Below are positions 8,947 to 29,731 of a stretch of 64,000 bases of DNA, in pieces. The notes under the pieces were generated by a model. That model made no database searches. It was not told the origin of the DNA and saw only the letters and a program-made list of their open reading frames with translations. Location of the stretch: assembly GCF_057098645.1 (NCBI RefSeq), contig NZ_CM169472.1; one strand, given 5' to 3'. Position 1 is the first letter of the stretch. Each line of letters begins with the position of its first letter. The translations under genes were made by a program, and so were the position numbers.

Positions 8947-8972
8947 AGTTTGCTGACAAAGTGCACTTGTTT

Positions 8973-26643: not shown

Positions 26644-27522
26644 ATGAGCAAAAAGCAGAGTTCCACCCCACACGATGCGCTGTTCAAACTCTTTTTACGC
26701 CAACCGGAGACGGCACGCGATTTTCTTGCGTTTCATTTACCGGCACCCATTCACGCGCTCTGTGATATGAAAACCCTCAAGCTGGAGTCGAGCAGCTTTA
26801 TTGATGACGATCTGCGTGAAAGCTATTCCGACGTGCTGTGGTCGGTGAAAACGGAACAAGGACCAGGATACATCTATTGTCTGATTGAACATCAAAGCAC
26901 CTCAAACAAATTGATCGCATTCCGCATGATGCGTTACGCCATTGCCGCAATGCAAAATCACCTTGATGCCGGATACAAAACGTTGCCGATGGTGGTGCCA
27001 TTGTTGTTTTATCACGGTATTGAAAGCCCCTATCCCTATTCGCTGTGTTGGCTGGATTGTTTCGCCGATCCCAAACTGGCAAGGCAGCTTTATGCCTCCG
27101 CATTTCCGCTGATTGATGTCACCGTCATGCCTGATGATGAAATCATGCAGCACCGACGTATGGCGCTGCTGGAGTTAATTCAAAAACATATTCGTCAACG
27201 CGACCTGATGGGGCTGGTAGAGCAAATGGCCTGCTTATTAAGTAGTGGATACGCTAATGACAGACAAATCAAAGGGCTGTTTAATTACATCTTGCAAACC
27301 GGCGATGCGGTACGTTTTAACGATTTTATCGACGGCGTTGCCGAACGTTCACCGAAACACAAGGAGAGTTTAATGACTATTGCGGAAAGATTGCGGCAGG
27401 AGGGGTTTCAGAAAGGTATACGTACTATTGCCAAAACCATGCTGGATGCCGGAGTCCCTCTTGAGGACGTTCTGCGATTTACCGGGCTGTCAGAGGAAGA
27501 ATTGGCTGCGGCGAGCCAGTAG
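26644..27522 (+). CDS. yhgA: Rpn-family recombination-promoting nuclease YhgA (PD-(D/E)XK, transposase_31-like)
   Basis: 292 aa [31 protein letters not shown]...; size and sequence as recalled for YhgA/RpnA. Confidence 0.9.
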
Positions 27523-27537
27523 ACACTATCCCCTGCT

Positions 27538-27584
27538 TAAGTGCTACTTTGTGCTATCTTGCATGTAACACAAAGTAGCACTTA
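27538..27584. promoter_or_regulatory. Perfect 16-bp inverted repeat (TAAGTGCTACTTTGTG - 15 nt - CACAAAGTAGCACTTA) upstream of the antitoxin start
   Basis: Arms at 27538-27553 and 27569-27584 are exact reverse complements; right arm ends 10 bp before the antitoxin ATG (AGGAA ribosome-binding site at 27584-27588). Candidate operator or repeat element. Confidence 0.5.
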
Positions 27585-27593
27585 GGAACTGAT

Positions 27594-27863
27594 ATGCAGA
27601 CAGTGAAATTACGGCAACAAGGAGGAGCCATAATCGTTACTATCCCACGAGATCTTGCCACCGATCTTGGCTGGTCACCGGGCACAGAGCTTACCGTGGA
27701 GAAAAAGGGCGATAGCGTTAATTTGCGCGCCACAGAGCACAAACCTCGTGGGCGTCTTACCGTCGCGCAGTTGTTGAGCCAGATCGATGAAAACGAAATT
27801 AAGGCCTTAAATCAGTCCTCAGAAGGATGGGCTGAAGAGAAAAAAGGTAATGAAGCATGGTAA
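27594..27863 (+). CDS. MazE/ChpS-like (AbrB/SpoVT-fold) type II antitoxin
   Basis: 89 aa ORF MQTVKLRQQGGAIIVTIPRDLATDLGW...; swapped-hairpin-type N-terminus and acidic C-terminus; stop overlaps the downstream toxin start. Confidence 0.8.
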   Translation: MQTVKLRQQGGAIIVTIPRDLATDLGWSPGTELTVEKKGDSVNLRATEHKPRGRLTVAQLLSQIDENEIKALNQSSEGWAEEKKGNEAW

Positions 27864-28225
27864 AGGCACGGACGCCACATCGTGGTGAGATCTGGTGTTT
27901 TAACCCTGATCCGGTTGCCGGGCATGAACTTCGGGGTCCACATTATTGCATTGTGGTAACGGACAAAGAGCTCAACAATGTTTTAAAAGTTGCTATGTGC
28001 TGCCCGATTTCAACAGGGGCAAATGCGGCACGTTCCTCAGGGGTGACGGTGAACGTCCTCCCCCATGATACGCAAACCGGTAACCTGCATGGCGTTGTGC
28101 TCTGTCACCAGCTAAAAGCTGTCGATCTTATTGCCCGTGGCGCTAAATTTCATACCGTTGCCGATGAAGCATTGATTAGTGAGGTGATCGGTAAACTGGT
28201 GAATTTAATCGACCCACAACAGTAG
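27857..28225 (+). CDS. MazF/PemK/ChpB-family endoribonuclease toxin
   Basis: 122 aa ORF MVKARTPHRGEIWCFNPDPVAGHELRGPHYCIVV...HGVVLCHQLKAVDL; pattern parallels ChpBK/MazF (RGDIVLV.FDP..GHE...P.T......G.HGVVL.NQ....D); ATG overlaps the antitoxin stop (ATGGTAA). Confidence 0.82.
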   Translation: MVKARTPHRGEIWCFNPDPVAGHELRGPHYCIVVTDKELNNVLKVAMCCPISTGANAARSSGVTVNVLPHDTQTGNLHGVVLCHQLKAVDLIARGAKFHTVADEALISEVIGKLVNLIDPQQ

Positions 28226-28239
28226 CCCTGACTTACCAC

Positions 28240-29731
<1,492 letters not shown>

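Follow-up and report, generated by a model that had tools for sequence, protein, structure and literature searches.

Results

The DNA analysed here is a window of 64,000 nucleotides (64 kb) of the contig NZ_CM169472.1 (assembly GCF_057098645.1), which shows 100% identity to the Escherichia coli O145 strain RM9872; all coordinates given below are positions in this window. The genes are arranged in the order feoB, feoC, rpnA (yhgA), an antitoxin gene and a toxin gene, followed by the convergent bioH. The subject of this work is a long inverted repeat (dyad) in the 71-nt intergenic gap between the rpnA stop codon (27520-27522) and the ATG of the antitoxin gene (27594). An earlier note on this DNA had read the dyad mainly as an autoregulatory operator of the toxin-antitoxin (TA) genes, and the evidence presented below, namely that the element travels with the TA cassette, is better conserved than synonymous sites and stands before a gene for an antitoxin of the AbrB/MazE fold, upholds this reading.

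The antitoxin gene (27594-27863, + strand) encodes a Kis/PemI-like protein of 89 amino acids with the AbrB/MazE/SpoVT fold, and the toxin gene (27857-28225, + strand) a protein of 122 amino acids of the PemK/MazF family, closest to Kid. The antitoxin gene comes first, and the two overlap by 7 nt. The antitoxin scored 26.7 bits against the Pfam family MazE_antitoxin (PF04014, cutoff 24.7) and showed 35% identity to PemI/Kis over 72 amino acids. Since a sequence search of the PDB gave no match for the antitoxin, fold prediction and fold search were used. The AlphaFold2 model had a predicted local distance difference test (pLDDT) score of 76 overall and of 83-90 in the N-terminal beta-beta-alpha-beta-beta domain (residues 1-40), and its top matches in the fold search were MazE, the operator-DNA-bound AbrB-fold VapB, AbrB and SpoVT. 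The toxin matched Pfam PemK_toxin (PF02452, E 1.4e-18), its identity to PemK was 35% (E 3e-25) and its closest solved structure was Kid of plasmid R1 (1m1f, E 3.3e-17). Neither protein reached the curated cutoff of the NCBIfam equivalogs (MazE/MazF of the Agrobacterium type, ChpB, MazF, PemI/MazE), the best scores being 35.3 bits for the antitoxin (cutoff 130) and 93.9 bits for the toxin (cutoff 150), thus the TA pair is an unnamed subfamily. A literature search for studies of the TA cassette found none.

The left arm of the dyad, TAAGTGCTACTTTGTG (27538-27553), and the right arm, CACAAAGTAGCACTTA (27569-27584), are exact reverse complements of 16 bp each, separated by a 15-nt spacer; the coordinates in the earlier note were exact. 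A repeat finder extended the arms to 19 nt, with 95% complementarity and a 9-nt gap. The end of the dyad is 9 nt from the antitoxin ATG. The ribosome-binding site AGGA (27584-27587, + strand) lies 6 nt 5' of the ATG, and GGAG/AGGA is found at the same place in all homologues; the overlap of the dyad with the ribosome-binding site, which the earlier note had claimed, is real and consists of one base only, the last base of the right arm being the first base of the site. When folded as RNA, the dyad region gave -29.2 kcal/mol (z = -6.0 against shuffles).

Within the dyad four heptads of the form (G/A)TNNNA(C/T) can be recognized, two per arm, H1 and H2 being in one orientation and H3 and H4 inverted. 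H1 (GTGCTAC, 27541-27547, + strand), a proposed antitoxin half-site, lies in the left arm together with most of H2 (GTGCTAT, 27551-27557, + strand), which is placed 10 bp past H1; the frame and the 10-bp phasing of H1 are kept in the homologous loci, and H2 is kept even in the Rhizobiaceae homologues. The right arm comprises part of H3 and the whole of H4. H3 (GTAACAC, 27565-27571, - strand) follows H2 by 14 bp and has the most variable centre of the four, while H4 (GTAGCAC, 27575-27581, - strand), 10 bp past H3, is the mirror of H1 and is identical in 10 of 11 aligned loci, the Salmonella locus having GTAGAAC. This arrangement of four heptads is unique in the window and was obtained in 0 of 200 Markov simulations of 64 kb. 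Elsewhere in the window the arm has a single match at up to 3 mismatches, at 45724, with 3 mismatches.

A putative extended -10 element (27552-27560, + strand), read by eye and from homology, consists of TG (27552-27553), c and TATCTT (27555-27560), and H2 supplies both the TG and the TA of this TGcTATCTT. The -35-equivalent position (CTGCTT, 27533-27538, + strand), 16 nt upstream of the -10 element, abuts H1. If these elements are used, transcription would start at about 27567-27568, at H3. Two open reading frames of 62 amino acids also cross the dyad (27554-27742, - strand; 27380-27568, + strand); they are unsupported and presumably are not genes.

Since the cassette variants of E. coli are too close to each other (about 4.5% divergence, with 2 substitutions in the arms and 2 in the spacer), a conservation test within E. 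coli is uninformative and more distant homologues were needed. Antitoxin homologues of 40-91% identity were taken from the protein database, from plasmids and from a viral contig, and their upstream DNA was read. The dyad element was present upstream of 16 of the 17 compared homologues, at a distance of 8-15 nt from the ATG, in Klebsiella, Salmonella, Serratia, Rahnella, Pantoea, Arsenophonus and the viral contig. The loci have entirely different neighbouring genes (Bro-N/ParB in Salmonella; LacI/DeoR in another enterobacterium; genes for a single-stranded DNA-binding protein, antirestriction, a portal protein or a transposase on plasmids; plasmids of Serratia, Rahnella and Pantoea are among the sources, and a further locus is found in Klebsiella spallanzanii), and the similarity between the different contexts stops immediately upstream of H1.

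In five loci with 69-82% antitoxin identity the arms were identical to those of the window at 29-32 of 34 positions (85-94%), while the identity at the third codon positions of the antitoxin genes in the same loci was no more than 30-48% (per-locus binomial P 1e-7 to 7e-14). As judged from these alignments, the difference shows strong purifying selection on the dyad. Its two-fold symmetry also covaries: in four pairs (8 cells) both arms have changed, as from G/C to T/A in Salmonella or from TTT/AAA to TTA/TAA, and 0 of 500 shuffles reached the observed cell number or the covariation score.

The spacing within H1-H2 and within H3-H4 is exactly 10 bp, i.e. one helical turn, in every locus, and H2 and H3 are 11-14 bp apart. 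TGnTAnnnT lies over H2 in every aligned locus, the relatives having TGcTATATT, TGcTACATT or TGcTACTAT, and in several of them the -35 hexamer abutting H1 at the 16-nt spacing is TTGACT, TTGCCC, TTGCCA or TTGATT. A promoter scan of the Serratia and Salmonella homologues called a -35 element, a 16-nt spacer and a -10 element with TG extension at the homologous position.

The copy number of the heptads varies: there are two in the Rhizobiaceae, four in Escherichia, Klebsiella, Serratia and Rahnella, and five in Pantoea. In the Pantoea loci the fifth heptad is upstream of the others and the consensus is GTGTGAC/GTCACAC instead of GTGCTAC; the N-termini of the Pantoea antitoxins differ as well (QTV to A/T-V/S-T, IPR to IPS). 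The Rhizobiaceae homologues, of about 40% identity and found on Neorhizobium and Rhizobium plasmids, have GTGCTAT-N4-GTAGCAC, a single palindrome of 18 bp which covers a TGcTAT... -10 element and combines the E. coli half-site with the two-heptad geometry of region I of the parD operon of plasmid R1.

The dyad is part of a 717-bp segment (27523-28239, + strand), the TA cassette, which comparison with empty sites showed to be either present or absent between rpnA and bioH, where it takes the place of about 25 bp. Among 5,426 complete E. coli genomes, 43 (0.8%) carry the cassette, each time in a single copy in the rpnA-bioH gap; its hosts are Shiga-toxin-producing strains of E. coli O145:H28 together with a small number of other lineages. 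At the empty sites the rpnA-bioH spacer is about 26 bp. A 64-nt query centred on the dyad matched the TA locus only, once per genome, in the same 43 genomes, while a control query from a site adjacent to a repetitive extragenic palindromic (REP) element (48596-48660) found at least 27-60 places per genome. Isolated 16-nt arms are below the reach of BLAST in the 28-Gb database, and the dyad counts cover the 64-nt and both-arm queries. GTGCTACNNNGTGCTAY would be expected at one locus in a complete O145 genome.

A both-arm pattern was further searched in 100,044 genomes, one per species, with G required at heptad position 3, a count in which Salmonella-type (GTTCTAC) and single-arm cases are not included; it gave two matches. 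One was the homologous TA operon of K. spallanzanii. The other, in an Oscillospiraceae metagenome-assembled genome (L028:1209-1251), reads GTGCTACTTTGT-N17-ACAAAGTAGCAC followed by a T-run, and it is situated between genes for a GspE/PilB-like ATPase and a MATE transporter with no TA genes nearby; this hairpin is probably a chance match that acts as a terminator, about what chance predicts. The earlier note had reckoned that many copies of the dyad in unrelated contexts would speak against an operator. No such copies were found, and its alternative proposal of a repeat element fails on the same counts. The searches of the E. coli genomes with the REP control, the scan of the species genomes and the motif searches in the window led us to reject a dispersed repeat, as far as the 64-nt and both-arm queries reach.

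The earlier note had also compared the arms to a palindrome, ACAAAGTGCACTT(T)GT, which abuts the outer side of REP/bacterial interspersed mosaic elements (BIME) at 8956-8971 and 48626-48641, where 0.29 occurrences would be expected by chance at up to 3 mismatches. Both palindromes do exist. The likeness to the arm, however, needs a 1-nt indel, and neither motif detects the other at up to 3 mismatches. The REP-adjacent palindrome reads AC-AAA-GTGCAC-TTT-GT, which is superficially similar to heptads and linker but has a 6-bp core; it is without a spacer, whereas the dyad has one of 15 nt. In common with REP/BIME the dyad is palindromic and intergenic, follows a convergent gene pair and contains ACAAAGT and GCACTT, but these elements occur in tens of places per genome, and the dyad has neither the G+C-rich REP consensus nor a REP neighbour. 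A literature search on the REP-adjacent palindrome found no study.

The left junction of the cassette is 16 nt from the dyad. Since rpnA ends with CAGTAG (27517-27522) in the presence of the cassette and with CAGTAA at the empty sites, this junction is within or beside the rpnA stop codon. The toxin gene also ends with CAGTAG (28220-28225), but recombination between the two copies would not restore the empty-site sequence. No repeat pairs 27523-27590 with 28200-28260, so the dyad lacks a counterpart at the far end of the cassette, and the suggestion that it marks an insertion junction or is a terminal repeat was abandoned.

A few natural variants of this region were noted in E. coli. The only substitution inside the heptads occurs in the PE164 lineage (3 genomes, 96.5%), whose antitoxin gene has a nonsense codon, and it was counted for the operator reading. 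It is a G-to-A change in H2 (window equivalent 27551), and the stop codon replaces the family-invariant Trp27 (window equivalent 27672-27674). The toxin open reading frame of this lineage is intact and carries a Gly-to-Glu change in a conserved SGGN-like motif (...STGAN...). The cassette looks to be decaying there. TUM2330-type E. coli have, in place of the TA cassette, an additional stretch of about 208 bp where rpnA ends (a span of 1884 against 1676 bp); it is a segment, duplicated or alternative, for the RpnS-like C-terminus of RpnA. This end of the gene is a rearrangement hotspot.

Discussion

The dyad, which is specific for the cassette and held by purifying selection, with its covarying symmetry, its promoter-like elements and the DNA-binding fold of the antitoxin encoded next to it, is most probably the autoregulatory promoter-operator of a Kis/Kid (PemI/PemK)-like type II TA cassette. 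The antitoxin would bind to the heptads as dimers, with its N-terminal AbrB/MazE domain in contact with a single face of the DNA to either side of the -10 element. Bridging of the antitoxin dimers by toxin dimers, as in Kid2-Kis2 chains, would strengthen the binding. The TA complex would then block the RNA polymerase and the operon would be repressed, to an extent that may be set by the toxin:antitoxin ratio as at parD.

In the parD system a perfect palindrome of 18 bp, which overlaps the extended -10 element, is the binding site of Kis; the binding is piloted by Kis, is tuned by Kid and is best with octamers of Kid2-Kis2 units (PMC1865072). The cassette resembles parD/pem of plasmids R1/R100 in its antitoxin-first operon, its AbrB-fold antitoxin and its Kid/PemK toxin, as well as in having a perfect palindrome just upstream of the ribosome-binding site with the left half over the extended -10 element, which in the window is putative (PMC1865072). 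The parD half-sites also begin with GT and end with AC (GTTATAT-TTAA-ATATAAC in region I). However, parD has two 18-bp palindromes, GTTATATTTAAATATAAC (region I) and GTTATATTTTTATTAAAC (region II), which are 33 bp apart, whereas the window has one 47-bp dyad of four heptads phased by 10 bp, with the half-site GTGCTAY and not GTTATAT. The window cassette is, moreover, chromosomal. The differences in half-site, number and spacing rule out that the dyad is a copy of the parD operator.

The mazEF operator is 47 bp long and contains three MazE-dimer sites (PMC4333400). The antitoxin model superposes on 1mvf/2mru with a root-mean-square deviation of 1.3-1.8 A over 43-50 residues, although in the fold alignments only 14-18% of the residues are identical to MazE. 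The window element shares with the mazEF 'cab' operator (alternating palindrome) the span of 47 bp and, as proposed here, adjacent antitoxin-dimer sites that overlap the promoter (PMC4333400); it differs in having four GTNNNAC heptads in a 2+2 inverted arrangement where mazEF has three ATATAT-core sites and two promoters. A 10-base repeat motif was described upstream of 76 of 79 AbrB-linked MazF modules (Chopra et al. 2013, PMC3879964), and the 10-bp-phased heptads fit the description of this motif, but the motif is a generic superfamily logo, while the subfamily of the window has its own consensus and a variable copy number. The best reading, by analogy, is an element which would resemble parD/mazEF in its working and has its own site sequence and layout.

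Several observations weigh against the operator reading. A promoter scan called no promoter in the window itself; CTGCTT is a poor -35 equivalent, and TATCTT agrees with the -10 consensus at only 4 of 6 positions. The overlap with a likely promoter claimed in the earlier note thus rests here on the extended -10 element read by eye and on homology. The symmetric covariation and the stable hairpin are expected equally from an RNA or DNA hairpin. A plasmid of Pantoea soli carries an antitoxin homologue (42% identity) with neither a heptad dyad nor a PemK gene, the cognate toxin being missing along with the dyad. This antitoxin may be an orphan or re-partnered one that has lost its operator. On the same plasmid a RelE/ParE toxin gene begins 230 bp downstream of the antitoxin homologue.

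The last of these observations concerns E. marmotae, where the TA pair is found at the same rpnA-bioH site without the dyad and without the promoter, thus the dyad is dispensable in at least one arrangement. RpnA contains an intragenic antitoxin, RpnA_S, which starts internally at Met244 of RpnA (PMC10400941); in the window the ATG of this start is at 27373. The E. marmotae antitoxin begins with MTIAERLRQ..., and the internal RpnA_S start is duplicated there, the second copy providing the antitoxin gene with its ribosome-binding site, its ATG and approximately its first 8 codons. At the fusion junction GAAAGATT is followed by ACGGCAACAAGGAGG, the antitoxin being joined at ACGGCAACAAGGAGG (e.g. 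E. marmotae locus L009:1484-1560; in the window, compare 27358-27400). The arrangement looks fixed in the species, since the protein cluster comprises 142 sequences on 263 contigs. As far as the sequence tells, E. marmotae is a natural operator deletion with fused regulatory regions of two adjacent TA-like systems.

The strongest of the rival explanations is that the element is mainly a nucleic-acid hairpin, with a 16-19-bp stem formed in read-through from rpnA or from the internal RpnA_S promoter, and acts as a terminator or insulator, as a 3' stabiliser of the rpnA mRNA, as an RNase III site or as a translational modulator of the antitoxin. The predicted hairpin is very stable, most homologues can still form it (z -4 to -8), the pairing of the arms covaries and the stem ends at the ribosome-binding site. 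On the other hand, the arm has a G+C content of 37.5% (6 of 16), the stem is followed by GGAACTGATATG, which is without a T-run, and no terminator was called, which disposes of a Rho-independent terminator and with it of the proposal in the earlier note that the dyad acts as the yhgA terminator. The dyad is also missing from the 5,383 cassette-free E. coli genomes, thus rpnA does not need it, and it accompanies the cassette also where the upstream gene is divergent or absent and no gene reads in. With the conserved -35 and extended -10 elements inside the dyad, the predicted start of the cassette's own transcript lies downstream of the left arm, which this mRNA would then not contain. At the viral, R. 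sikkimica and Rahnella loci, heptads have flipped or pair with another partner and the fold is weaker (z -1.6 to -3.7), while the GT..AC frame and the 10-bp phasing persist. The mismatches between the arms include the non-wobble pairs C/A and G/A. A known RNA family was ruled out as well, as the search of Rfam 15 gave nothing above threshold, only eukaryotic microRNA-precursor models at 20-26 bits against cutoffs of 47-100. Taken as the main role of the element, the hairpin is quite unlikely; a secondary hairpin effect on rpnA read-through is possible.

The dyad could also be a conserved operator that serves another DNA-binding protein, such as a regulator of the host or of a mobile element, since the conservation of a site does not by itself tell which protein binds there. 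Against this, the dyad follows the two TA genes into Gamma- and Alphaproteobacteria, plasmids and the viral contig with no other shared neighbour, and the heptad consensus of Pantoea switches together with the changes in the antitoxin N-terminus. We consider this explanation very unlikely. That the dyad is a dispersed-repeat copy (a REP/BIME palindrome or an element like a miniature inverted-repeat transposable element) or the terminal repeat or scar of the cassette insertion is hardly credible, since its nearness to the left junction and the ACAAAGT and GCACTT shared with the palindromes at 8956 and 48626 are outweighed by its restriction to the TA locus, by the indel that separates it from those palindromes and by the lack of a counterpart at the cassette's 3' end.

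The operator reading can be extended to a combined one, which we regard as improbable, in which the heptads are a modular, countable code that tunes the operon, and the E. coli dyad also insulates, as a hairpin, two adjacent TA-like systems. If the code were modular, the number of heptads would set the length of an alternating antitoxin2-toxin2 chain templated by the promoter, and with it the toxin:antitoxin ratio at which repression fails, and the central triplet of the heptad would co-evolve with the antitoxin N-terminus. If the insulation were true, the hairpin at the 3' end of the rpnA/rpnA_S read-through would separate RpnA_L/RpnA_S from the Kis/Kid-like pair, and the rpnA_S-antitoxin fusion of E. 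marmotae would be the uninsulated state.

The element belongs to an ordinary, well-known kind of control element and leaves the current understanding of TA regulation unchanged. What is gained is a testable operator map, with four heptads, an extended -10 element and a ribosome-binding site, for an uncharacterised Kis/Kid-like chromosomal cassette. Nature moreover offers a series of variants, i.e. the loci with two, four and five heptads, the half-site switch in Pantoea and the loss of the operator in E. marmotae, which is useful for studying how AbrB-fold antitoxins read DNA and how the number of sites acts in ratio-dependent repression.

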